From: Anaerolineae bacterium
Lineage (GTDB): Bacteria > Chloroflexota > Anaerolineae > CG2-30-64-16
Reading direction: 5' to 3'
DNA: 64,000 nucleotides
NCBI GenBank assembly: GCA_034434235.1
Contig: DAOTZV010000098.1
Span: 8,879 to 72,878, forward strand
The notes under the pieces are model-generated. The model saw only the letters and a list, made by a program, of their open reading frames with translations. It did not search any database and was not told the origin of the DNA. Positions 115 through 64,000 of the stretch are shown here, piece by piece; position 1 is the stretch's first letter; the number at the start of each line of letters is the position of its first letter. Made by a program: the position numbers and the translations under genes.

Positions 115-855
115 TTACCGCAACCTGCGCAACGCGGCTCCCAGGCCGATGCCCAGGAGGGAGAGGCCGGCAACGAGCAAGGGACTGAGCGCGCCGCCGG
201 TCTTGGGCATGGTGGCCGGCGCCGGCGCTGCCGCGGCCGGCGCCGGCGCGGCGGCCGCCTTGATCGCCGCTACCTGCGTCTTCATGAAATTGGCAATCTC
301 GGCCGCCTGCGCGTCGGTCACCTGCGTCGCGCTGAAGCTCGGCATGTTCTTGGCCGGCGTGCGGAGCTGCTTCAGGACGATTTCCGTCGTCACTTCGCGG
401 TTTTGGTCCACGAAACGCGTCTTGATCATGCCCTGGCCGAAATTGCTGTGGCAGGCCTCGCAACGCTTTTGCGACCACAGTTGCTTGCCGACAGGATCTG
501 TGGCCGATACCGGCACCGAGTAAGGCGTGAAGGAGGCCGGCTTGGGCAACGTCTGCATGTAGGCCCACATGTCGGTGAGGGTGGCGTCGCTGATCTGAGC
601 GGCGCTATAAGAGGGCATGTTGGCGCGCGGGGTGCGCACCTGCTTGATCCAATCGGCCGCGGTCTTGCCGTCGCCGGCGCGCGGGCCGGCAAACTTGCCT
701 TCGCCGTTGGCGCCGTGGCAGGACTTGCAGTTGGCGGCATCCCATGCGGCTTTGCCTTTGACGGGGTCCCCTGTGCCCTGGGCGGTGACGGTGGCGGCCA
801 GCAAGAGGAGCAACAACATGGGGAGAATCGCAATCGCCAGAATTCGCCTGAACAT
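115..855 (-). CDS. Diheme c-type cytochrome, secreted, with C-terminal tripartite sorting signal (MPKTGG + hydrophobic segment + RRLR)
   Basis: Two CxxCH motifs (CKSCH, CEACH). Signal peptide MFRRILAIAILPMLLLLLLAATVTAQG. Start moved to second ATG (855) because GGAGGA lies 7 nt upstream. Ala/Pro-rich linker then MPKTGG-TM-RRLR tail. Confidence 0.8.
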   Translation of the reverse strand: MFRRILAIAILPMLLLLLLAATVTAQGTGDPVKGKAAWDAANCKSCHGANGEGKFAGPRAGDGKTAADWIKQVRTPRANMPSYSAAQISDATLTDMWAYMQTLPKPASFTPYSVPVSATDPVGKQLWSQKRCEACHSNFGQGMIKTRFVDQNREVTTEIVLKQLRTPAKNMPSFSATQVTDAQAAEIANFMKTQVAAIKAAAAPAPAAAAPAPATMPKTGGALSPLLVAGLSLLGIGLGAALRRLR

Positions 856-1013: not shown

Positions 1014-1081
1014 TCTCTATCCTGACCCGTAGGGTAATCATACTGGAATCAGGGAAATCTTGTCAAATCTCTCCTCACGGT

Positions 1082-17985: not shown

Positions 17986-18026
17986 GCCGGTATTATACTA
18001 TACTCTACTTGCGGCTGCGGTATAAT

Positions 18027-20726
18027 ATGCGCATGTCCGTCGAGTCCGCGTTGCAGGCGCTTCGGTTCGATCCGCGCTTCATGCGCCATGTCGGTCGCTG
18101 GGTGCATGTGCCGGCTCGCGCGGCGCGCTTCGCGGCCTTCCCGGCCGGGTTGGATCATCGCCTGGTCGAGGCGCTGGCGGCGCGCGGGGTGCACCAGCTC
18201 TACGCACACCAGGCCGAGGCGGTGGCCGCCGGCCTGCGGGGCGAGCATGTCGCCGTCGTGACGCCGGCCGCCAGCGGCAAGACGCTGTGCTACAACCTGC
18301 CCGTCCTTCAGCGCCTCCTGGCCGATCCCGCCGCGCGCGCCCTCTATCTCTATCCCACGAAGGCGCTGGCGCACGATCAGTTGGCCGGATTGCGCGAGCT
18401 GGCCGATCTGACCGTGGCGCACGCGGGCAACTTGCGCCGCAGATCCGAGCTGATCTGCGCGACCTATGACGGCGACACCCCTTCCGCGCAGCGGAGCAAG
18501 ATACGCGATACGGCCCGGATCCTCCTCTCGAATCCCGACATGCTCCACGCCGGCATCCTGCCGCAGCATCCGCGCTGGGCCGCCTTCTTCGCCAACCTGA
18601 CCGCGGTCGTGATTGACGAGATGCACGTCTATCGCGGGGTGTTCGGCTCGCACGTGGCGAACGTGTTGCGCCGCCTGCGCCGCATCTGTCGCTTCTACGG
18701 CAGCGACCCGCGCTTCTACCTGGCATCGGCCACCATTGCCAATCCCCAGGAGCTGGCCGAGCGCCTGGTCGAAGCGCCGGTCACCGTGATCGGCCCGGAA
18801 CGCGACGCCGCGCCGCAGGGCGAAAGGACGATCCTCTTCTACAACCCGCCCCTGCTCGACCCGGCGCTGGGGATCCGCCGCAGCGCCGGCCTGGAGGCCG
18901 CCGAGCTGGCCGCGCACTTCGTGCGGCACGACGCGCAGACCATCGTCTTCGGCCGCGCCCGTCTGACGGCCGAGCTGATCCTGACGTACCTGCGCCAGCA
19001 GCTCGCCGGCCGCGACGCCGCCCCACAGGAGTTCGGCGGTCTCGCGGCCACCGACGTGCAGCGCGCGATCCGTGGCTATCGCAGCGGCTACCTGCCGGCC
19101 GAACGCCGCGCCATCGAGGCGGGATTGCGCGATGGCACGGTGCGCGCGGTCGTGGCCACCAACGCCCTGGAACTGGGGATTGACATCGGCCAGATGGCCG
19201 CGGCGCTCCTGGCCGGCTATCCGGGCACGATTGCCGCCGCGCGGCAGCAGATGGGCCGCGCCGGCCGACGCCAGGGGGCGGCCGCGGCCGTGCTCGTCGC
19301 GGCGGCCGATCCGCTCGATCAATACCTGATCGCCCATCCGGAATACCTGCTCGAGCGGACGCCCGAACACGCCCGCCTCAATCCCGACAACGCGGTGATC
19401 CTGGCCGGCCATCTGGCGTGCGCCGCGGCCGAGCTGCCGTTCGAAGCCGGCGAGGAGTTCGGCCGGGCCGGCGTCGGGTTGGGGCCCGATGGCCTGGCGC
19501 GGCTGCTGGACGAGCTGGTGGAGGCGGGCAAGCTCTACCGCGCAGGCGGCCGCTACTTTTGGGCCGGGCCCGGTGCGCCCGCGGCTGCCATCAGCCTGCG
19601 CAGCAGTGCGGCCGAACGGGTCATCATCCAGGCGCCGGATCCCGCGGGCAAGCCCCAGGTGCTCGGCGAGATCGAACGCACCGCGGCCCCTCTGTTCGTC
19701 TACGAGGGGGCCATCTACTTGCACGAAGGGACGAGCTACCTGGTCGAGCGCCTGGATTGGCCGGCCGGCATCGCGTACGTCCGGCCCCTCGAGGCCGATT
19801 TCTACACCCGCCCTGTGGTCGGCGAAGGGGTCGAGGTGTTGGCCGTCCACGCGACGATGCACTTCGGCGCTCCGGCGGCCGATGAAGACAACGAGGCTTT
19901 CCGATGTTCGTGGGGCCGCGTTCGCGTCGCGCGGCAGGTGACCGGCTACCGGATCATGCGCCGGGGAACCAACGAGGTGTTGGGCTTCGGCGCCGTGGAC
20001 CTGCCCGAACATGCCTTCGAGACGGAAGGGTGTTGGCTGGAGCTTGCGGCCGATCTGGTGGAACAGCTTCGGCTGGAAGGGCGGTGGCTCTCGGATCCCA
20101 ACGATTACGGCCCGAACTGGGCCCAGCAGCGCGCGGCCGCTCGCGCCCGCGATGGCTTTCGATGCCAGGGTTGCGGCGCGCTGGAAGTCCCCGGTCGCCA
20201 GCACGATGTCCATCATCGCATCCCGTTGCGTGCGTTCGTCGCCGATCCCCACCTGCGCGGCGGCCTGCCGCCGGAACGCGCCTGGGAAGCGGCCAACGTG
20301 CTGGAGAACCTGGTGACGTTGTGTCCGGCGTGCCATCGCCGGGCCGAGACGGCCGTGCGCCTGCGCTCGGGGTTGGGCGCTGCGGCTGCGGCGCTCCTCG
20401 GCGTCGCGCCGATCTTCCTGATGTGCGATCCGGCCGATCTGGGCATGGTTGTCGAGCCGCAGGCGCCCGCGAGCGGCTTGCCCGCCATCACGATCTTCGA
20501 GCAGACGGCCGGCGGCATCGGCTATGCCGAACAGTTGTATCGCCTGATGCCCCAGGCGCTGGCGGCCGCGCTCGACCTGGTGCGCGGTTGTCCTTGCGAG
20601 CACGGTTGTCCGGGGTGCGTGGGCCCGACGCCGGAGCACGACTACATGCCGGACGCCAAAGCCCTGGCCCGCGCGCTTCTGGAAAGAATCGCTTCGGTTT
20701 CACCTTGCCAATCGTCGCAGCCGTGA
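18027..20726 (+). CDS. MrfA-like ATP-dependent helicase (DEXH helicase + DUF1998 Zn-binding domain) with inserted HNH endonuclease domain
   Basis: Helicase motifs (AASGKTL, DEMH, SAT). C-terminal 4-Cys DUF1998. ~94-aa insert carries HNH signature CQGCG...HDVHHRIP...N...CPACHRR and is absent from the paralog at 41912. Confidence 0.75.
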   Translation: MRMSVESALQALRFDPRFMRHVGRWVHVPARAARFAAFPAGLDHRLVEALAARGVHQLYAHQAEAVAAGLRGEHVAVVTPAASGKTLCYNLPVLQRLLADPAARALYLYPTKALAHDQLAGLRELADLTVAHAGNLRRRSELICATYDGDTPSAQRSKIRDTARILLSNPDMLHAGILPQHPRWAAFFANLTAVVIDEMHVYRGVFGSHVANVLRRLRRICRFYGSDPRFYLASATIANPQELAERLVEAPVTVIGPERDAAPQGERTILFYNPPLLDPALGIRRSAGLEAAELAAHFVRHDAQTIVFGRARLTAELILTYLRQQLAGRDAAPQEFGGLAATDVQRAIRGYRSGYLPAERRAIEAGLRDGTVRAVVATNALELGIDIGQMAAALLAGYPGTIAAARQQMGRAGRRQGAAAAVLVAAADPLDQYLIAHPEYLLERTPEHARLNPDNAVILAGHLACAAAELPFEAGEEFGRAGVGLGPDGLARLLDELVEAGKLYRAGGRYFWAGPGAPAAAISLRSSAAERVIIQAPDPAGKPQVLGEIERTAAPLFVYEGAIYLHEGTSYLVERLDWPAGIAYVRPLEADFYTRPVVGEGVEVLAVHATMHFGAPAADEDNEAFRCSWGRVRVARQVTGYRIMRRGTNEVLGFGAVDLPEHAFETEGCWLELAADLVEQLRLEGRWLSDPNDYGPNWAQQRAAARARDGFRCQGCGALEVPGRQHDVHHRIPLRAFVADPHLRGGLPPERAWEAANVLENLVTLCPACHRRAETAVRLRSGLGAAAAALLGVAPIFLMCDPADLGMVVEPQAPASGLPAITIFEQTAGGIGYAEQLYRLMPQALAAALDLVRGCPCEHGCPGCVGPTPEHDYMPDAKALARALLERIASVSPCQSSQP

Positions 20727-25229: not shown

Positions 25230-25940
25230 TTATCGCGTCGTCTTGTTGCGTCGGAAGTCCACGAATCGGTAGCCGACCCCGCGCTCGGTGAGAATATAAC
25301 GCGGGTTGTCTGCATCCGGCTCGATCTTCTTGCGCAGATAGTTGATGTAGGTGCGCAAGAGCTGCATGTCGTCTCGATATTCGGGCCCCCACACTTTCGT
25401 GAGCAGGCTCTCCTGCGGCACGATCCAGCCGGCGTTCTCCACCAGGTAGAGCAACAGGCGATGTTCGGTCGGCCGCAGCTTGATGCGCTCTCCGCGCACG
25501 ATCACCTCGCGGCGCGGGAAGTCTATCGCCAGGTCCTCGTCGATCACCAGCGGCTCGTCGGCCTGAGCTTTGGTCGGCTCCATCCGCCGGAGCACCGCGC
25601 GGATGCGGCTGACCAGCTCGCGCGGACTGAACGGCTTGGTGACGTAATCGTCCGCGCCCAGGTCGAGGCCGCGGATGCGATCCTCTTCGTCCCCCTTCAC
25701 GGTGAGCATGATCACCGGCACCGACGACGTCCGGCGAATGCGTTCCAACGTCTCGAACCCGTCCAGGTCGGGCATCATTACGTCGAGCAGCACCAGGTCG
25801 GGCATGTCTTCGCGCACGCGCTCCAGGGCCACCAGCCCGTTCTCGGCCTCCAGCACGTCGAACCCCTCCAGCTCGAGGTTCATGCGCACGAAGCGGCGCA
25901 TGCGCGCTTCGTCGTCCACCACCAGGATGCGTTTTCTCAT
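25230..25940 (-). CDS. OmpR-family two-component response regulator
   Basis: Receiver domain with phosphoacceptor Asp ([11 protein letters not shown]) and winged-helix C-terminus (YRFVDF). Confidence 0.8.
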
Positions 25941-25971
25941 ACTTCACCTTCGTCGTGCATATCGGCTGCTG

Positions 25972-27603
25972 TCACTGAAGCGGCAAGGTGAAAAAGACGG
26001 TCGTCCCTTTGCCCGGTTCGCTGCGCAACCAGATCTGGCCGCCATGCGCCTCGACGATGGACTTGCAGAGATAAAGCCCCAGCCCGGCACCCTGGGTGCT
26101 GCGGCGCAGGCTCGAATCCACCCGATAGAAGCGCTGGAACAGCTTGCCTTGTTCTTCAAGCGGGATGCCGATCCCCTGGTCGGCCACGTAGACGGTGACC
26201 CGCGTCCGGTCGGCCCAGCCGCCGATGCGGATCTCGCCGCCGGCCGGCGAATACTTGATGGCATTGCTCACCAGGTTGTTCAAGACCTGGCGCAATCGCT
26301 CTTCGTCGCCCGACACGCACGGGAAGTCGGCGGGAAAATCGAGCACGAAGCGATGGTTCGTCGTCTGCACCCGAAAGCCTTCCACCACGCGCGCGGCCAG
26401 TTGCGGGAGCATCACGTCGCCGATCTCCAGCCTGAACGCGCCGGCCTGGATGCGCGAGGCGTCCAGCAGGTTGTTGATCAGCGCGTTCAGCCGGTCGCTC
26501 TCCTCGCTGATGATCTGGAGGCCCTCCCGCAGGGTGGCGCTATCCCAATGCGCGTCTTCGCGCGCCAGGGTATTGGCATACCCCTTGATGAGCGCCACCG
26601 GCGTCTTCAGCTCATGCGAAATGATCGAGATGAAGGTGGACTTCATCTCCTCGGCCTCGCGAAAACGGGTGATGTCCACCACGTTGGCGATCACCTGCGC
26701 CAGCCGGTCCTCTTCGTCGTAGAGGGGCGAGTAGGTGACGCTGACGGCGATGCGCGAGCCGCCCGGCCTGGAGAGCAACCCTTCCACGGTCAGCGGCTGG
26801 CCATCGGGAAAGCGCGCTTCGGCCGGATCGGCCCCGCACAGATTGGGGCCCGAGGCCTGTTCCAGCGCCAACACCTCGTAGCATGGCCGGCCGATGGCGG
26901 CCTCGGCCGGCCAGCCGGTCATCTGGCTCAGCGCCCGGTTGAAGACCTGGATGCGCAGGTCGGGATCGAGGATCATGATCCCGTCGGCGCTGTGCTGGAT
27001 GATCGCGTCCAGTTGCTGCTTCTCGGCGATCACCTGCTGGTAGAGCTGTGCGTTGCGCACCGCGATCGCGGCCTGGTCGGCGAAGCTGGTGAGCACCGCG
27101 CGATCGTTGGCGGTGAACGCGACGCTGCCGCTGCGGAAAAGGTAGATCACCCCGAGCAACCGCTCCTCGAACGTCAGCGGCAGCGCGATGACCTGGTGGA
27201 GGGGAAGCAGGATCGCGTGCGCCACCATCTCCAGCCGCAGCTCCAGGTCGGGAAAGATGAACTGATCGGCGCGCAGGGGCACGTCGTCGAGCAGCGGCGC
27301 GAAGCGCGGCAACAGGCTGCTCGGGATGTTGTAGCTGGCGCGGATCACCAGCGAATTCGTATGCCCGCGGCGCAACGCGATCAAGCCGGCCTCGGCTCGC
27401 ACGATCTCCGCGGCGTTCGTCAGGATCAGCCGCAAAAGGGACGGCAGATCGAGCCGCGAGGTCATCGCCCGGCTGATCTGCAACAGGTATTCGCGCTGGC
27501 GCAACTGATAGCTGATCACGGTCCCTCGATGGAAGTGGATTGCGGGCAACGGTTTACGGCCCCATTGTACCCCAGAACCCCCGACTCCGCCAACTCCGCC
27601 CAT
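25972..27603 (-). CDS. Sensor histidine kinase, cytoplasmic, tandem GAF domains + HisKA + HATPase_c
   Basis: H-box SHELKTP, N/G boxes (NLVSNAIKYS, GAGLGLYLCKS). Start uncertain: ORF track start is TTG at 27657 through Gly-rich low complexity; first in-frame ATG is 27603. Confidence 0.7.
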   Translation of the reverse strand: MGGVGGVGGSGVQWGRKPLPAIHFHRGTVISYQLRQREYLLQISRAMTSRLDLPSLLRLILTNAAEIVRAEAGLIALRRGHTNSLVIRASYNIPSSLLPRFAPLLDDVPLRADQFIFPDLELRLEMVAHAILLPLHQVIALPLTFEERLLGVIYLFRSGSVAFTANDRAVLTSFADQAAIAVRNAQLYQQVIAEKQQLDAIIQHSADGIMILDPDLRIQVFNRALSQMTGWPAEAAIGRPCYEVLALEQASGPNLCGADPAEARFPDGQPLTVEGLLSRPGGSRIAVSVTYSPLYDEEDRLAQVIANVVDITRFREAEEMKSTFISIISHELKTPVALIKGYANTLAREDAHWDSATLREGLQIISEESDRLNALINNLLDASRIQAGAFRLEIGDVMLPQLAARVVEGFRVQTTNHRFVLDFPADFPCVSGDEERLRQVLNNLVSNAIKYSPAGGEIRIGGWADRTRVTVYVADQGIGIPLEEQGKLFQRFYRVDSSLRRSTQGAGLGLYLCKSIVEAHGGQIWLRSEPGKGTTVFFTLPLQ

Positions 27604-27722
27604 TCCCCAACCCCCAGCCCCTGGTCTCCCTCCCCCATTCCCTCGCCCCTCATCCAATCACTTGCCCCGACTTCCACCCCGTGCTATAATTGCGCCAGCG
27701 TTTCACATTGAAAGGCGATCCT

Positions 27723-28559
27723 ATGACCCCAGCCAATCGTATTCGCAGAACCATCGGTAACGTCCTGGTCGTGGCCGGCGTGCTTCTCTTGCTCGTCGGC
27801 TGTTCGATCTTCGCGCGTCAACAACTGGAGGGCGAGCAGTTGCGGGCCGAGCTGCAATCCACGCCGACCGCGGTTGCCGCGCCGGCGACCCCCACGGCCG
27901 CGCCGGCTCCGACCATCGCCCCGCCGACGCCGACCACGGCGCCGACCGTCCCGACGACCCTGCCGCCCACCGCCACGTCTGTTCCGGCCAGTCCCACGCC
28001 GACCGCCACGGAGCCGATCGCCCATGCGGCCGCGGCCAACGCCACGCCCGATCTGCCCGTGCGGATCGTCATCCCCGATCTCAAGCTCGATGCGCCGGTG
28101 GTCGAGATGGGGTGGACCATTGTCAACACGGCCGCCGGACCCCAATCCGATTGGGTCATCCCGAAGAACGCGGCCGGCCACCACATCAACAGTGCAGCGC
28201 TGAACGAAGAAGGCAACATCGTCATCTCCGGGCACAACAACATCGAGGGCAAGGTGTTCGAGGCGATCAGCCTGGCGTGGGACGAGAAGACCAAAGTCCG
28301 CGTAGATGACGTGACCGACCGGTCGGACATCCTGAAGGGGCGCAAGATCGTGCTCTACAACGCGGCCGGCAAGGCTTTCAACTACACGATCAGCGATTTC
28401 CTGCGCCTGAAGGATGCGGGCGTTTCCGCGGAACAGCGGCTGAAGAACGCCCGCTTCATGGATCCAACCCCCGAGCGTCGTCTGACCCTGGTCACATGTT
28501 GGCCACCATGGAGCAACACGCATCGCCTGATCGTCATCGCGACGCCGGCGCAGCCGTGA
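27723..28559 (+). CDS. Sortase-family transpeptidase, N-terminal membrane anchor and Pro/Thr-rich linker
   Basis: Catalytic TLVTC motif (RLTLVTCWP) and conserved His region (ISGHNN). TATAAT at 27685. Confidence 0.75.
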   Translation: MTPANRIRRTIGNVLVVAGVLLLLVGCSIFARQQLEGEQLRAELQSTPTAVAAPATPTAAPAPTIAPPTPTTAPTVPTTLPPTATSVPASPTPTATEPIAHAAAANATPDLPVRIVIPDLKLDAPVVEMGWTIVNTAAGPQSDWVIPKNAAGHHINSAALNEEGNIVISGHNNIEGKVFEAISLAWDEKTKVRVDDVTDRSDILKGRKIVLYNAAGKAFNYTISDFLRLKDAGVSAEQRLKNARFMDPTPERRLTLVTCWPPWSNTHRLIVIATPAQP

Positions 28560-28576
28560 GCGGGTCGCCGGCCGGC

Positions 28577-29611
28577 ATGGCTGTGGCGCGCCGGGGATGG
28601 GGCGTCCGGTTGCAGATCTGGCTGGGCGCGGCCATCGCGCTGGGCACGATCTACCTGGCGGCGCGGGCCGTGGACTTCGGCCAGCTTTTCCGGGCCTTGC
28701 AGGAGGTGCGCCTGCCGTTCGTCCTGGTGGCTTTGGGCACGGCCCTGGGGACCAATGTCCTGAAGGCCGCTCGCTGGCGGGCGTTGTTCCATCCGCGGCC
28801 GGCCCGACTGAGCCTGCTGCAGTTGACCAACCTGATCGTCGTCGGCCAGGCCGTCAACTTCTATATCCCTGCGCGGCTCGGCGAACTCGTGCGGGCCTAT
28901 CTGACGGGCGAAGAGGCGGGCGTCAGCAAAGTCTATGCGCTGGGCACCATCGCCGCGGAAAAGCTCATTGACATCATCGTGTTGGCGCTGTTGATCGCGG
29001 CCATGTTGCCCTTCCTGGCTTTGCCCGATTGGTTGGCCGGCCGGATCGGGCCCCTTTTTTTGACCGCATTGGCCGTGTGCATCGTGATCGCCGGCCTGGT
29101 CGGCGGCCGGCGGCTGATCTGGCGGCCGATCGAGTGGGGCTTGGGCTTGCTGCCGGCCGCCTGGGGCGAACGCTGGCGAACGCGGCTGCGCGCCGGCCTG
29201 GATGGGTTGAGCGCGTTGGGTTCGCCGCGAGCCGCCGCGGCGGTGTGGGGATGGACGATTGCCTTTTGGCTGGTCGCAGCGTTCACCAATTACCTGCTGC
29301 TGTTGGCTTTCGATCTGCCGGCCTCGGCCTTGATGGCCTTCTTCCTGTTGGCCGTCCTTCAGGCGGGAGTGGCCGTGCCGTCTACGCCGGGCAAGATCGG
29401 GGTGTTTCACTACCTGTGCATCCTGGGCCTGGGTGTGTTCAATGTGTCGGCGACGACCGGCCTGGCGTATGGCCTGGTGCTCCATGCGCTGGTGGTCGGG
29501 GGCGTGAGCTTGTGGGCGGCCGCGGCGTTGTGGCGACGGAGCTGGAACCTGCGTCGCCTGGCCGAGGCATCCCGAGATGGATCGGATCAGCTTGAAGGGA
29601 GACAGATATGA
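28577..29611 (+). CDS. Lysylphosphatidylglycerol-synthase-TM-like / flippase-like integral membrane protein
   Basis: ~8 TM helices. Pattern resembles the LPG_synthase_TM (UPF0104) family; no C-terminal synthase domain. Confidence 0.5.
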   Translation: MAVARRGWGVRLQIWLGAAIALGTIYLAARAVDFGQLFRALQEVRLPFVLVALGTALGTNVLKAARWRALFHPRPARLSLLQLTNLIVVGQAVNFYIPARLGELVRAYLTGEEAGVSKVYALGTIAAEKLIDIIVLALLIAAMLPFLALPDWLAGRIGPLFLTALAVCIVIAGLVGGRRLIWRPIEWGLGLLPAAWGERWRTRLRAGLDGLSALGSPRAAAAVWGWTIAFWLVAAFTNYLLLLAFDLPASALMAFFLLAVLQAGVAVPSTPGKIGVFHYLCILGLGVFNVSATTGLAYGLVLHALVVGGVSLWAAAALWRRSWNLRRLAEASRDGSDQLEGRQI

Positions 29612-30282
29612 AGCGCGAATTCCGCCTGGCGGGCTATCTTCTGCTGCTGGCGATCTTGCTGGGATCGCTGGCCGCCGGCCCGCAGGTTTGGGCTACGCCA
29701 GATCAAACCGCGAGCAACCAGACGGTGCCCACGCGGACACCGAAGCCGCCCGCGCCGACCGTTGCGCCCACGGCCGCGCCGCGGCCCACGTCTGAGCCGC
29801 AGCCGACCGCGCCGCAACCCACTGCCACAGCGCCCGTCGCGGCCACGCCGTCGCCCACGGCCGTCGCGCCGGCGGGTCGCGTCGACTTGAGCCTGGCGCT
29901 GAGCGTCGCTCCGGTGCAGGTCTGGTCGGGCGTGACGGTGGTCTACACATTGACGGTGACGAACCTTTCGATGAGCGCCCTGCGCGATGTCGTGTTGCTC
30001 GATCCGTTGCCCGCCGACCTGGAGCCCGGCGCGATCCTGGTCGGCCGCGACGTCGGCTGGCAATCCGGCGCCCTGCGCGCCACCTTCGCGGAGCTGGCGG
30101 CCGGCGCACAGGCCGAGGTGATCTTCACGGCGAAGGTGGCGGCCGGGGTGCCGGCCGGCAAGGTGATCGTCAACCGGGCTACGGCCACGGCCGGCGCGGC
30201 GTCGGCCAGCGCGAGCGCGGCCATCGCCATGCCGCCGGCCGAGCTGCCCGCCGTCGGGAGCGGTGCCGTCTGCATTCGTTGA
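29608..30282 (+). CDS. Secreted DUF11 (conserved repeat domain) protein
   Basis: Signal peptide, Pro/Thr/Ala linker, DUF11-like block VVYTLTVTNLSMSALRDVVLLDPLP. Stop codon lies inside a 23-bp tandem repeat. Confidence 0.55.
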   Translation: MKREFRLAGYLLLLAILLGSLAAGPQVWATPDQTASNQTVPTRTPKPPAPTVAPTAAPRPTSEPQPTAPQPTATAPVAATPSPTAVAPAGRVDLSLALSVAPVQVWSGVTVVYTLTVTNLSMSALRDVVLLDPLPADLEPGAILVGRDVGWQSGALRATFAELAAGAQAEVIFTAKVAAGVPAGKVIVNRATATAGAASASASAAIAMPPAELPAVGSGAVCIR

Positions 30283-30330
30283 CGTATTTTGTCTACATTC
30301 GTTAACGTATTTTGTCTACATTCGTTGACG
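30273..30330. repeat. 23-bp direct tandem repeat x2.5 (CATTCGTTGACGTATTTTGTCTA)
   Basis: Units at 30273-30295 and 30296-30318 plus a partial copy. Spans DUF11 stop and the region immediately upstream of the DUF2723 ATG. Confidence 0.8.
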
Positions 30331-30338
30331 TTTCCTGG

Positions 30339-31934
30339 ATGAAGCTCGCCCGTTCCCGGCTGTTGGAGGACGCCTGGCCGGCGCTCTGCGCCGGGGCCGG
30401 CGCGCTGGCGCTCTATCTCTGCACGGCCGCGTCGGGCCTCACCTGGGCGCACCACGGCGCCGACGGCGGCGACCTGCTGGCTGCCGCGCTGACGCACGGG
30501 GTCCCTCACCCCACGGGCTATCCCACCTATCAGTTGCTGCTGAGCGCGGCCGTCGGGCTTTGGCCCCAGGCGCCGGCGCGCGCGGGCAATCTGCTCTCCG
30601 CGGTCGCTGCCGCGTTGGCCGTCGCGTTCCTGGCCGATCTGACCCGGCGCACGCTGAGCGGCCGTCCGGCCGGCGCGGCGGCCGCGGCCGGCGTGGCCGC
30701 GGGCTGGATCTGGGCCACCTCGCCCGGTTTGTGGAGCCAGGCGGTCATCACCGAGGTCTACGCGCTCAACGCGCTGGCCGTGATCGCGCTCCTGTGGCTG
30801 GCGTGGCGCGGGCGAGAGGCGGCGTTGGCCGGCCGTCGCGTCGGTCCCTGGCTGGCGGCGGCCGGCCTGATCTTCGGCCTGGGATTGGGCAATCATCTGA
30901 CCCTGGCGCTTTTGTTTCCGGCCCTGGTGATCTGGTGGGCGGATCTTGCGGGCCCGCCGCGGGCCGACGCACGCGGCCACGCCCGGCCGCGGCTCGCGAG
31001 GAGCGCCTGGGCGCCGGCCCTGATCGCGTGCGCGCTCGGGCTGGCGGTCTACGCCTATCTGCCGTGGGCGGCGCGCCGCGGGCCGCCGATCAACTGGGGC
31101 GATCCCGCCACGGCCGATGGCTTCTGGTGGCTCGTTTCGGGAAGCATCTACCGGCGGATGGTCTTCGGGATCGGCCTGGCCGATTGGCCCCATCGCCTGG
31201 TGGCCTGGGCCGCGGAGGCCGGTCGGCAGCTTGGTGGGGGGCCGTGGGGCGCGGGGCTGGCGCTGCTGGGCGCCTGGCGACTGGGGCAGGAACACCCCTC
31301 CTGGCAACGGGCCGTGGCCCTCGCGGCCGCGCTCTTCACCCTGTACGGGATCGGCTACGACGCGGCCGATTCCTACGTCTATTTGATCCCGGCCTGGGCG
31401 GTCGCCGGCCTCTGGTTCGGCTGGGGCGCGGCGCGGTTGGCCGCACAGCTTGCCGCGCGGAGCACCGCCCGATGGGGCACGGCGCTGCTGATCGCGCTGA
31501 CGATCGGCCTGCCGACGCTCGCCGCGGCGCGCTGGTGGCCGCAGATGGACCTGAGCCGCGATCGGGCCGCGGCCGATTACCTGGCAGAGGTCGAACGGAC
31601 GGCCGACCGCGGCGCGATCATCCTGGTCGGCGGCGATCAGGCCACCTTTGCGCTGTGGTACGACCGCTATGGGCTGCGCCGTCGGCCCGATCTGATTCCG
31701 GTCAACGTGCACCTGTACGACTTCCCGTGGTATCAGGCCGCACTGATGCGTTACCATCCGGCCCTGGCCGATCTGGCCGCGGCGTCGGGCAAGCTGCCGA
31801 CGGTGGAGGAGTTCGTACGCGTAGCCGCCGCGCGCGGGCCGCTCTACCGCGGGGATGCGCTCGCCGGCTTCGAGACCGGCCTGCGCGAGACGGCCGCCGG
31901 CGTCCTGGTGCGTTTGTCGTTGCCGGAGAGATGA
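30339..31934 (+). CDS. DUF2723 (TMEM260-like, GT-C fold) putative protein O-glycosyltransferase
   Basis: Multi-TM protein with hallmark HGADGGDLLAAALTHGVPHPTGYP block characteristic of DUF2723. Confidence 0.55.
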   Translation: MKLARSRLLEDAWPALCAGAGALALYLCTAASGLTWAHHGADGGDLLAAALTHGVPHPTGYPTYQLLLSAAVGLWPQAPARAGNLLSAVAAALAVAFLADLTRRTLSGRPAGAAAAAGVAAGWIWATSPGLWSQAVITEVYALNALAVIALLWLAWRGREAALAGRRVGPWLAAAGLIFGLGLGNHLTLALLFPALVIWWADLAGPPRADARGHARPRLARSAWAPALIACALGLAVYAYLPWAARRGPPINWGDPATADGFWWLVSGSIYRRMVFGIGLADWPHRLVAWAAEAGRQLGGGPWGAGLALLGAWRLGQEHPSWQRAVALAAALFTLYGIGYDAADSYVYLIPAWAVAGLWFGWGAARLAAQLAARSTARWGTALLIALTIGLPTLAAARWWPQMDLSRDRAAADYLAEVERTADRGAIILVGGDQATFALWYDRYGLRRRPDLIPVNVHLYDFPWYQAALMRYHPALADLAAASGKLPTVEEFVRVAAARGPLYRGDALAGFETGLRETAAGVLVRLSLPER

Positions 31935-41911: not shown

Positions 41912-44365
41912 ATGGCTTTCGATCCGGCCGTTTTCCTGAACGAACTGCGCCGCCGCCGGGATTACGCCGGGCAACTGGTGCATGTGCAGACGATCCCGGC
42001 CCGCGCGCCGCGCTACGGCGAGCTGCAGGTTCAGCTCAGTCCGCCGGTGCGGCGGGCGTTGGCCGCGGCCGGCGCGGAGCGGCTCTACACCCATCAGGCC
42101 GCCGCGATCAATGCCGCGCTGTCGGGCCAACATGTCGTCGTCGCCACCTCCACGGCCAGCGGCAAGACCCTCTGCTTCAACGTGCCGGTGTTGGAGGCGC
42201 TGGCGCGCGATCCGCTGGCGCGTGCGCTCTATCTCTACCCCACCAAGGCGCTGGCGCAGGATCAGCTCGGCAAGTGGAAGGCGCTGGTCGAGGGCGCCGG
42301 CGAGGGGATCATCAATCCCCTCGCCGCGACCTATGACGGCGACACGCCCCAGGCCGCGCGCGCCCGCGTGCGCAAGACCGCGCGCGTCCTGCTGACCAAC
42401 CCCGACATGCTCCATACCGGCATCCTGCCCAATCATCCGTTGTGGGCCGAGTTTTTCCGCCATCTGAAATATGTGGTCATAGACGAGGCGCACACCTATC
42501 GGGGCGTGTTCGGCTCGCAGGTGGCGTGCGTGTTGCGTCGGCTGCGCCGGGTGTGCGCGCTGTATCAGGGCGCAGAAGGCCGGTGGCCCGAGGCCGAGGC
42601 CCGGAAGCGCGCGAGCAGCGGCGGCGCCGGGCCTCTCGGCCGGGGGCCCCTCTTCATCGCCACCTCGGCGACCATCGCCAATCCGGCCGAGCACTTCGCG
42701 CTGTTGACCGGCCTGTCCGCGACGGTCATCGCCGACGACGGCTCGCCGCACGGCCCGCGCACGTTCGCGCTGTGGAACCCGCCCTTCCTGGATCGCAGCC
42801 ACACGGCCCGGCGCAGCGCCAATCACGAGGCGAGCGACCTGTTCGCGGCGCTGGTGAGCGCCGGCGTGCGCACCATCGCGTTTACGCGGGCGCGCGTCAT
42901 CGCGGAGCTGCTCCTGCGCTATGCGCGCGCCGCGCTCGGCCGCAACCGCGCCACGGCCGGCCTGGCCGACCGCATCGCGGCCTATCGGGCCGGCTACCTG
43001 CCCGAAGAGCGCCGGCGCATCGAGCGAGAGCTGTTCGGCGGCCGGCTGTTGGGCGTGACGGCCACCAGCGCGCTGGAGCTGGGGATAGATGTCGGCGGCC
43101 TGGACGCGGCGATCCTGGTCGGCTATCCGGGCACCATCGCCAGCTTGTGGCAACAGGCCGGCCGCGCCGGCCGCGGGGACGCGGCTTCGCTGACGATCCT
43201 GATCGGCCTGGACGACCCGCTCGATCAATACTATATGCGCCATCCCGCCGAGCTGCTCGGCCGGCCGCACGAGAACGCGCTGCTCGACCCCGATAACTTC
43301 TACATCCTCCAACGCCACCTGCCGTGCGCCGCGCACGAGATCCCGCTGCGCGTGGCGGCCGAAGAGCAGCCCCAGGCGGCCGATCAGGCCGGCATGGACG
43401 ATGAGTCGCTTTTCGGGCCCGGCTTCGTGGACGCGATGGTGGCGCTGGAAGAGAGCGGCGTCTTGCGCTTCACCGGCGAGCGGTGGGTCTACGCGCGGGC
43501 CGACTACCCGGCGCAGGACGTCAGCCTGCGCGATGCGGAGGGCGAGCGCTTCGCCATCCTGAACGAAGCCAACGGCTACCGCATGTTGGAGGAGATCAGC
43601 AGCACGACCGCGCCGTTCCGCGTCCATCCGGGCGCCATCTACCTGCACCAGGGCGAGTCGTACCTGGTGACGGAGTACAACGCCGCGCTGCGCCATGCGA
43701 TCGTGAAGCCGGTCAACGCGGACTACTATACCCAGCCGCGCGAGGTCAACGATGTGCGCATCGTGCGCTCGCTGCGGCATCGGCCGCTTGCGGCCGGCGC
43801 GGCCTATCTGGGCAAGGTGCGGGTGCGGGGCCAGGTGATCGGCTATCGCCGGCTCCAACAGTTCACCGAGGCGGTGCTCGGCGAAGAGCCGCTGGACATG
43901 CCGGTCACGGAGTACGAGACGATCGGCCTGTGGTGGGACCTGCCGCCGGAGCTGCCGGCCGAACTGGCCCTGCGCGGGCTCGACTTCCTGGGCGGCCTTC
44001 ACGCGGTCGAGCACGCGGCCATCGGCATCCTGCCGCTCTTCGCCATGTGTGACCGCTGGGACATCGGCGGGTTGAGCACCCCGCGCCACCCCGACACCGA
44101 CGCCGCGCAGATCTTCATCTACGACGGCTTTCCGGGCGGGGTGGGCATCGCGGAGAAGGGCTTCGAGCTGTTGCCCGAGCTCTGGTCGGCCACGCTGGAC
44201 GTGATCCGAGGTTGTCCGTGCGAGGGCGGGTGTCCGAGCTGCGTACAAAGCCCCAAGTGCGGCAACTTCAACCAGCCGCTGGACAAACAGGCCGCCGTGG
44301 CGATCCTCCAGCGGCTGCTGGCCGGACAACGTTCCGCTACGGCCGGATCTCGAAGTCGTGGGTGA
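41912..44365 (+). CDS. MrfA-like ATP-dependent helicase (DEXH helicase + DUF1998), paralog without HNH insert
   Basis: [16 protein letters not shown] motifs. C-terminal [18 protein letters not shown] zinc cluster. ~45% identical in conserved blocks to the gene at 18027. Confidence 0.75.
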
Positions 44366-57201: not shown

Positions 57202-62024
<4,823 letters not shown>

Positions 62025-62907: not shown

Positions 62908-62977
62908 CGTTGTTGATCACCCATTGCATCGAATTGCGAAATAAAACTCGCGTTACGCAATCCCAGGAGACATTTCA

Positions 62978-64000
62978 ATGGAGAAATTCGTCATAGAAGG
63001 CAAACACCCCTTGAGCGGCGACGTTACGCCGGCCGGCAACAAGAACGCGGCGTTGCCGCTCCTGGCCGCCACGCTGTTGACCGACGGCGAAGTGACGCTG
63101 CACAACGTGCCCCGCATCGGCGATGTAGGCACGATGCTGCAATTGCTCGCCGGGCTGGGGGTCGCGATCCGCGATGAGGGGAGCACGTTGCACCTTTGCG
63201 CGAAGGATGCCCGCTTTGCCGTCCCCCGGCCCGAGCTCTTCCAGATGGTGCGCGGGGGGATGCTCCTGGCCGGGCCGATGTTGAGCCGCTTCGGCCAGGC
63301 GATCCTGCCGTTGCCGGGCGGCGATCGCATCGGCCGGCGCCGCGTGGACACGCACCTGTTGGCCCTGGAGGCGCTGGGCGCGCAGATCGAGTTCGATCAC
63401 TACGACTTCACGATGCGTTCGACCGGGCTGCGCGGGGCCGACATCCTCCTGGACGAGGCCAGCGTCACCGCCACCGAAAACGCCGTGATGGCCGCGGTGC
63501 TGGCGCGCGGGACGACGATCATCCGCAACGCCGCGTGTGAGCCGCACGTGCAAGACCTGTGCTCCATGTTGAACTGTCTGGGCGCCAAGATCTCCGGCAT
63601 CGGCAGCAACACCCTGATCATCGAGGGGACCGATCATCTGGCCGCGGGCGAGTTCACCATCTCGCCCGACTATCTGGAGGTGGGGAGCTGGCTGGGGTTG
63701 GGGGCCGTGACGCGCGGGGAGATCCGCATCCACGGCGTGGTGCCCGACCATATGCGGATGATCAACTTCGTCTTCGGCGAGCGCCTGGGGGTGCGGATGC
63801 GCATGGAAGGGGATACCCTGATCGTGGCCGACGAGCAGGACCTGCGCATCCGCGAGGATGTCGGCGGCGCGGTGCCGAAGATAGATGACGCGCCGTGGCC
63901 CCAGTTTCCCGCCGATCTGATGAGCATCGCGTTGGTGGTCGCCACGCAAGCCAGGGGCACCGTCCTCATCCACGAGAAGATGTTCGAGAGCCGCCTCTAC
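62978..64000 (+). CDS. murA: UDP-N-acetylglucosamine 1-carboxyvinyltransferase (partial, 3' end beyond window)
   Basis: N-terminal [20 protein letters not shown] and catalytic-loop region consistent with MurA. RBS CAGGAGA. Confidence 0.8.

Follow-up and report, generated by a model that had tools for sequence, protein, structure and literature searches.

Close to the start of a 64,000-nucleotide stretch of contig DAOTZV010000098.1 from an Anaerolineae bacterium (the window), a gene was found for a diheme cytochrome c that is probably a sortase substrate, that is, a c4/QcrC-like diheme carrier tethered to the cell wall or to lipid II of a monoderm bacterium. The preliminary description of this DNA had read the C-terminal tail of the protein as a sortase-type sorting signal. 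This reading is supported by the conservation of the signal throughout the cytochrome family, by the presence of a sortase with an intact catalytic triad, and by LPxTG-type motifs on proteins encoded next to sortase genes. The parts that had been described, namely a signal peptide, two CxxCH sites, an Ala/Pro linker, MPKTG, a hydrophobic stretch, and the tail RRLR, were all confirmed at verified coordinates (Table 1).

The homologue search covered 5.8 billion proteins and returned 147 matches at E ≤ 1e-3, including a 100%-identical protein (P0001), and the named homologues came from Anaerolineae or Thermoflexales metagenome-assembled genomes (MAGs) only. In 110 of the best 120 homologues, with identities down to ~46%, the C terminus consisted of [L/M]Px[T/S/A]G, a hydrophobic helix, and a basic tail; the remaining 10 were truncated, carried extra fused domains, or varied at position 4 (P0020, MPKIG). 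The consensus of the 110 signals was A-P-[AT]-[TA]-[L 85/M 25]-P(110)-[K/V/T]-[T 55/S 37/A 18]-G(110)-G(90)-[E/Q]. Judged from these numbers, Met at position 1 is a conservative family alternative to Leu; Val was observed there once (VPKTG, locus L089). Between 24 and 35 residues followed the motif Gly across the 110 tailed homologues, compared to MPKTG lying 26 residues before the C terminus in the window protein, and at least two Arg/Lys were present within the last 8 residues of 108 of these tails.

Outside the heme domains, P217 and G220 of the motif were the sole invariant positions in a 39-sequence alignment (A2), and the linker ahead of the motif was hypervariable in both length (0 to >100 residues) and sequence. 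The alignments thus indicate that motif, membrane helix, and basic tail are under strong purifying selection, with the neighboring linker drifting freely. A scan of metagenome contigs showed that all complete relatives at ≥45% identity were tailed, except L092 and L106, which had extra fused C-terminal domains. Soil relatives at 30 to 37% identity (L121-L164) had a different C-terminal domain and no anchor. This conserved domain of ~150 residues, ending in DLKGTIRWAKPAPKTGPNLDVVNF, contains PKTG with no hydrophobic segment after it, and since the domain is apparently soluble, the tetrapeptide by itself carries no meaning.

Among the best 150 matches of a profile search against 1.84 billion cluster representatives, 36 were tailed, these being the high-scoring full-length orthologues and P0302. 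The latter is a tetraheme relative (455 residues, 4 CxxCH) ending in LPRTG, a membrane helix, and RARARKL, and the sorting signal is therefore not confined to the diheme architecture. Of the more distant cytochromes, some had a lipobox or a plain C-terminal membrane helix and others lacked an anchor, and tail-anchored open reading frames (ORFs) of other kinds in related genomes likewise lacked the pentapeptide. It was concluded that the pentapeptide does not simply come with anchoring by a membrane helix. The LPXTG_anchor model (TIGR01167) was matched at E ≤ 1 by 17 of 39 family members, and several members are already labeled "LPXTG-motif cell wall-anchored protein" in the Joint Genome Institute annotation, so the feature is visible in databases, though without interpretation. 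Signals of the PEP-CTERM/exosortase, PGF-CTERM/archaeosortase, and GlyGly-CTERM/rhombosortase types were considered and rejected, as none matches the conserved motif.

The sortase gene that had been noted at 27723 proved to be real. In its product, the catalytic domain follows an N-terminal membrane helix and a ~70-residue Pro/Thr/Ala linker, and the triad of His171 (SGHNN), Cys259 (TCWP), and Arg268 (THR) was invariant in 24 sortase homologues. The AlphaFold2 model of the catalytic domain matched solved class A, C, D, and E sortases with a Foldseek probability of 1.00, and the nearest solved structures by sequence were Streptomyces class E sortases. An assignment to a class was dropped, since the NCBIfam scores were below cut-off and Foldseek matched the four classes equally. 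The LAXTG substrate pattern of class E was not found either, as position 2 of the candidate substrates is occupied by Pro rather than Ala. When one genome per GTDB species was scanned, 253 sortase relatives were obtained, the best 80 of which belonged without exception to MAGs of Anaerolineae, Caldilineae, or unclassified Chloroflexota.

The DNA around the sortase genes of related genomes, about 1.08 Mb, was searched for further ORFs with [L/M]Px[T/S/A]G, a membrane helix, and a basic tail. Only three were found: RskA_C-domain proteins ending EFLPVTGG plus a membrane helix (L061 and L066) and a low-complexity protein with RLPSTGG and a membrane helix at its end, encoded immediately 5' of the sortase in L083. 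Four scrambled-motif controls gave 0, 0, 1, and 0 matches in the same DNA. A different pattern was observed for the DUF11 protein encoded beside the sortase in the window. Its homologues in about 22 related sortase loci end in PPxELPx[T/V]G followed by 3 to 20 polar residues; they are encoded in L005-L032, about 1 to 2 kb downstream of the sortase. This LPXTG-type motif has no membrane helix or charged tail, is always beside the sortase, and has Val for Thr in the clade of the window. The DUF11 protein is, on this pattern, probably a dedicated second sortase substrate with an unusual signal and no membrane anchor, and the tight pairing implies recognition of LPxTG-like motifs by this sortase clade, position 2 being Pro and position 4 partly free. 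The preliminary description had suggested a search for other proteins with [LM]PxTG tails to define the motif and had named the lack of any such protein as evidence against the idea. A six-frame scan by regular expression and hydropathy found no second tailed protein in the window besides the cytochrome, but such tails do occur in the related genomes, in the three proteins above and, in the form of the bare motif, in the DUF11 neighbors. The putative substrate peptides are APATMPKTGGAL, APAPATMPKTGGALS, MPPAELPAVGSGAV, and PPAELPAVGSG. The cytochrome and the sortase co-occur in the window, and homologues of both lie on two long contigs of sample ERZ25039459 (cytochrome P0016 and sortase P0187).

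The cluster around the sortase (25230-31934) is conserved, being found also in L165 (7436-11987), and its gene content (Table 1) suggests a small module for envelope modification that is controlled by a two-component system. A further recurrent protein, encoded 5 to 7 kb from the sortase, ends in YYYQLQEVExNGxxNxHGPIxVxAGGL, a membrane helix, and a basic tail, with no LPXTG (L007 16736-17404, L016 16010-16699, L021 16240-16692, L024 14963-15508, and L029 7499-7951). From its conservation, this C-terminal signal may represent another sorting class.

The cytochrome itself consists of two tandem cytochrome c domains (Cytochrome_CBB3/Cytochrom_C, 74 bits versus a cut-off of 27), and its AlphaFold2 model had a mean predicted local distance difference test score (pLDDT) of 90.4. 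The features of a class I diheme (c4-like) cytochrome were all present: two CxxCH sites, an invariant distal Met for each, and two tandem domains. From the two hemes and the invariant Met ligands it was deduced to be a carrier of the class I respiratory type rather than a multiheme conduit, and the MtrC, DmsE, and OmcA models matched at the CxxCH site only, far under their cut-offs. The best NCBIfam match was actinobacterial QcrC (NF050122), at 54.6 bits versus a cut-off of 200, with the best family member reaching E = 9e-21. Since the score is far under the cut-off, the protein was not considered a member of the QcrC family. The closest PDB sequences were mycobacterial and corynebacterial QcrC (E about 2e-6), and the best Foldseek matches were QcrC and Pseudomonas cytochrome c4, with weak E-values (about 0.02) attributed to the signal peptide and tail included in the model. 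On the modeled structure, the cytochrome is narrowed to "QcrC/c4-like" with no specific family.

The reading frame, which has its stop codon at 115-117, shows a coding-type bias in G+C at third codon positions (GC3). An alternative upstream ATG at 870 would give a longer ORF. The start at 855 was favored because the Shine-Dalgarno sequence GGAGGA (863-868) lies 7 nucleotides ahead of it and because the homologues begin MFKQIL or MLKRIL. In the signal peptide, which is conserved in homologues and lacks a lipobox cysteine, a basic n-region precedes a hydrophobic core and an A-x-A-like cleavage site followed by G; residues 2 to 27 form a helix in the AlphaFold2 model. A Tat signal was rejected because of the sequence FRRIL; c-type apocytochromes are exported unfolded via Sec.

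Table 1. Positions of the cytochrome gene, the sortase cluster, and other features in the window
Feature	Position	Strand	Basis or remark
Diheme cytochrome c gene, 246 residues	115..855	-	ORF and translation, Pfam, homologues, AlphaFold2 model
Sec-type signal peptide MFRRILAIAILPMLLLLLLAATVTAQ, residues 1-26	778..855	-	Sequence, homologues
Heme site 1, CKSCH	715..729	-	C43, C46, H47 invariant in alignment A2
Axial Met80 of heme 1	616-618	-	Invariant in A2
Heme site 2, CEACH	448..462	-	C132, C135, H136 invariant in A2
Axial Met171 of heme 2	343-345	-	Invariant in A2
Ala/Pro-rich linker AIKAAAAPAPAAAAPAPAT, 19 residues	211..267	-	Hypervariable in homologues, low pLDDT
Sortase-type pentapeptide MPKTG	196..210	-	Family consensus A-P-[AT]-[TA]-[L/M]-P-x-[T/S/A]-G-G
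Hydrophobic stretch GALSPLLVAGLSLLGIGLGAAL, 22 residues	130..195	-	Sequence
Basic tail RRLR	118..129	-	Sequence
Palindromic structured element, 95 nucleotides, between promoter and start codon	919..1013	-	Inverted repeat and fold
Sigma-70-like promoter, TTGACA-18-TATGAT	1037..1066	-	11/12 consensus positions, consensus match only
Response regulator	25230-25940	-	Sortase cluster
Histidine kinase	25972-27657	-	Sortase cluster
Membrane-anchored sortase	27723..28559	+	Pfam Sortase, 68.7 bits versus cut-off 26.6
LPG_synthase_TM-family membrane protein	28496-29611		Sortase cluster
DUF11 protein, ends ELPAVGSGAVCIR, LPAVG at 30244-30258	29608..30282	+	Pfam DUF11
TMEM260-like glycosyltransferase	30312-31934		Sortase cluster
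murA, cut by window end	62975..64000	+	NCBIfam PRK09369, 365 bits versus cut-off 297

The following route is proposed for the cytochrome. It would be exported via Sec, with removal of the signal peptide and attachment of heme outside the cytoplasmic membrane. The C-terminal tripartite signal would be its sole means of retention, the hydrophobic stretch and RRLR holding the precursor in the membrane transiently. The membrane-anchored sortase would then cut after Thr219 (MPKT|G), forming a thioacyl intermediate, and pass the cytochrome to an amino group of a cell wall precursor (lipid II/peptidoglycan). The Ala/Pro linker would tether it in the wall zone outside the membrane, where it would act as an extracytoplasmic electron carrier, the presumed redox partners probably being a quinol:cytochrome c oxidoreductase and a terminal oxidase or reductase. 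The cleavage, the wall linkage, and the redox partners in this scheme were deduced rather than observed. MurA, the enzyme of the first committed step of peptidoglycan synthesis, is encoded at the end of the window. Members of a sister class within the Chloroflexota are considered monoderm and have peptidoglycan as well as further non-lipid layers (PMC13319060).

Several observations weigh against attachment to the wall. The window cytochrome, with Met instead of Leu, did not match the TIGR01167 model at E ≤ 1; Thr occupies the scissile position in about half of the family, with Ser or Ala otherwise; and on the aligned tails the family motif is looser than classical sortase A specificity. The sortase fell under every NCBIfam class cut-off (class E NF033747, 46 bits versus 160), and the sample of substrates was limited to the 1.08 Mb described above. 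No redox partner is linked to the monocistronic gene between proA and the convergent dnaK, and the physiological role was consequently deduced from homology alone. Actinobacterial QcrC, the nearest characterized homologue, keeps a permanent C-terminal membrane-helix anchor, and a carrier fixed to the wall would drift from its membrane partners during wall maturation. These last points favor instead that the cytochrome remains permanently membrane anchored, as are QcrC or Bacillus c550, with [L/M]PxxG being a hinge, an interaction motif, or a site that is rarely processed. Such an anchor would suit a respiratory carrier, which must remain near the membrane, and it would accommodate the lack of a TIGR01167 match and the variation at position 4 (T, S, A); the near invariance of G230 and G237 in the C-terminal helix (alignment A2) could likewise reflect helix packing. 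A hinge, however, would not be expected to fix both L/M-P-x-T/S/A-G and its spacing from the helix in all 110 tailed homologues, and the helix-anchored cytochromes and other tail-anchored proteins of the lineage do without the motif. In addition, a sortase and a sortase-adjacent LPxTG-type protein exist, and no qcrA- or qcrB-type partner was linked to the gene in about 40 loci. A permanent anchor was therefore considered possible but unlikely.

It is also conceivable that sortase-fixed cytochromes in the wall or filament sheath form a redox relay to minerals, electrodes, shuttles, or neighboring cells, fed by the lipoprotein cytochrome of the PSCyt1 type that is encoded beside the gene in some relatives. 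The anchoring of wall cytochromes in monoderms is still an open question (PMC7720022), and covalent fixation fits a static relay better than a diffusing carrier. Linkers of 0 to >100 residues, the same tail on the tetraheme P0302, and the divergent lipobox monoheme cytochrome c adjoining the gene in L001, L090, L091, L096, and L108 would all agree with this. Against it stand the presence of two hemes only, both His/Met ligated, and the absence of any multiheme partner or metal reduction or oxidation gene from the window and the loci examined; the PSCyt1 neighbor is also absent from the window. His/Met ligation of heme usually accompanies a high redox potential. A relay of this kind was judged rather improbable, and the link to extracellular electron transfer suggested in the preliminary description found no positive support, the protein being a two-heme His/Met class I cytochrome with no linked respiratory or metal reduction genes. 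The least probable explanation by far is that the pentapeptide is a meaningless product of chance or annotation. The G+C content of 66%, at which Ala/Pro/Gly-rich tails are common, and the lack of a second such tail in the 64-kb window would permit this, but it is refuted by the comparative data: the motif recurs in 110 of 120 homologues with identities as low as ~46% and scrambled motifs gave 0 to 1 matches in 1.08 Mb, while the GC3 bias and the Shine-Dalgarno sequence support the ORF itself. Processing by a sortase thus remains the probable reading of the cytochrome tail.

The arrangement was compared to known systems. In layout, the protein follows the LPXTG signals of Firmicutes and Actinobacteria, with a signal peptide, a Pro/Ala-rich spacer, a pentapeptide, ~20 hydrophobic residues, and a basic tail, and its genome also encodes a membrane-anchored Cys transpeptidase that has the His-Cys-Arg triad. 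Unlike the known substrates, the cargo is a c-type cytochrome, the motif is degenerate (L/M, T/S/A), the host belongs to the Chloroflexota, and the sortase scores below cut-off. QcrC of the bcc-aa3 supercomplex shares the two tandem class I domains, the His/Met ligation, and a C-terminal hydrophobic segment, and addresses the same problem, the lack of a soluble cytochrome c in a monoderm. It has no LPXTG motif, however, and stays a membrane-bound subunit of a complex, whereas the present gene lies outside a qcrCAB operon. The small cytochromes c of Bacillus (c551 and c550) and heliobacteria are anchored as lipoproteins or by membrane helices and are of high potential. They are tethered at the outer face of a single membrane, much as proposed for the present protein, but their anchors are N-terminal lipids or membrane helices, in contrast to the C-terminal sortase signal described here; more distant relatives of the present family use lipid or membrane-helix anchors of this kind.

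Anaerobic methanotrophic (ANME) archaea encode small multiheme cytochromes with predicted PGF-CTERM archaeosortase signals (PMC9012536). These likewise have a C-terminal signal for a sorting transpeptidase that was predicted from genomes and, by this analogy, are the closest published analogue of the tailed cytochrome. They differ in being archaeal and multiheme and in having an unrelated archaeosortase, another motif, and a predicted lipid-linked product. OcwA of Thermincola potens, an example of the cell wall cytochromes of Gram-positive metal reducers, is a multiheme terminal reductase whose wall anchoring is stated to be unknown in a review of Gram-positive electroactivity (PMC7720022). 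Both it and the present protein are c-type cytochromes, and the present one, with two hemes and an explicit sorting signal, would likewise be placed in or on a monoderm wall. Full-text literature searches gave no report of a sortase-attached or LPXTG cytochrome c, of an MPXTG motif, or of Anaerolineae sortases, and in papers by Cavalier-Smith sortases were mentioned in an evolutionary context only.

Monoderm bacteria cannot retain soluble periplasmic cytochromes and are known to rely instead on lipid anchors, membrane helices, or fusion to complexes. If the proposed route is correct, delivery of a cytochrome c by a sortase would add a further mode of anchoring and would provide, for one lineage, a testable answer to how cytochromes are fixed in Gram-positive-type walls. 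The relay in the wall, if real, would carry electrons through the envelope of filamentous Anaerolineae to external acceptors or donors, or from cell to cell within a filament, and would thus offer a new way of wiring a Gram-positive-type envelope that is accessible to genetics. The cytochrome family is widespread in Anaerolineae, a poorly understood group that is abundant in sludge, sediments, and soils. Very few other sortase substrates may exist in Anaerolineae genomes, and the family is therefore probably physiologically important. The comparative data further outline a putative sortase clade of the Chloroflexota whose specificity, (L/M)Px(T/S/A/V)G, is relaxed, together with a companion substrate that has no membrane anchor.

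The cytochrome gene is monocistronic. Upstream of it are proA and proB in the same orientation, and dnaK-grpE-hrcA converge on it from downstream, as read from metagenome contigs of the same organism (L085 and L086). No Rieske or cytochrome b neighbors of the qcrCAB type were found in the window or in ~40 related loci, and no respiratory complexes were encoded beside the cytochrome in the window and the loci examined. Only two neighbors recurred in relatives, both encoded divergently and both absent from the window. In close relatives (64 to 83% identity), the gene is paired with that of a monoheme PSCyt1-type cytochrome c of ~190 residues (L001 9184-9765, minus strand; L003 8951-9517, minus strand; also L090, L091, L096, and L108), with the lipobox LAMAGC and an extended Ala/Pro/Thr linker, so that a lipid-anchored cytochrome adjoins the sortase-tagged one. 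In a subclade at 45 to 55% identity (L101, L103, L111, L112, L115, and L117), the upstream neighbor is a DUF2231 membrane protein of ~150 residues with the motif HPxHxMVVHFPIG. This protein could be a redox partner in the membrane; the literature search gave nothing on the function of DUF2231.

Upstream of the start codon, promoter-like sites as good as the one listed in Table 1 would be expected 0.3 times by chance. The palindromic element between this site and the start codon has a perfect 14-bp outer stem around two small hairpins, and the leader RNA was predicted to fold with -73 kcal/mol (z = -4.3). A search of Rfam with the leader gave sub-threshold chance matches only, and no further copies of the element were present in the window or in 164 loci, except in L085 and L086. 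Judged from its location and fold, the element could be a terminator for proA or a regulator in the leader of the cytochrome gene.

Elsewhere in the window, gyrB (57202-61947, minus strand) is a 1,581-residue ORF interrupted by an intein with LAGLIDADG homing endonuclease and helix-turn-helix domains. Two paralogous MrfA/HRQ1-like DEAD-box helicases with MZB zinc-binding domains are encoded at 18009-20726 and 41912-44365 (both plus strand), and a similar helicase is encoded near the cytochrome in L001.

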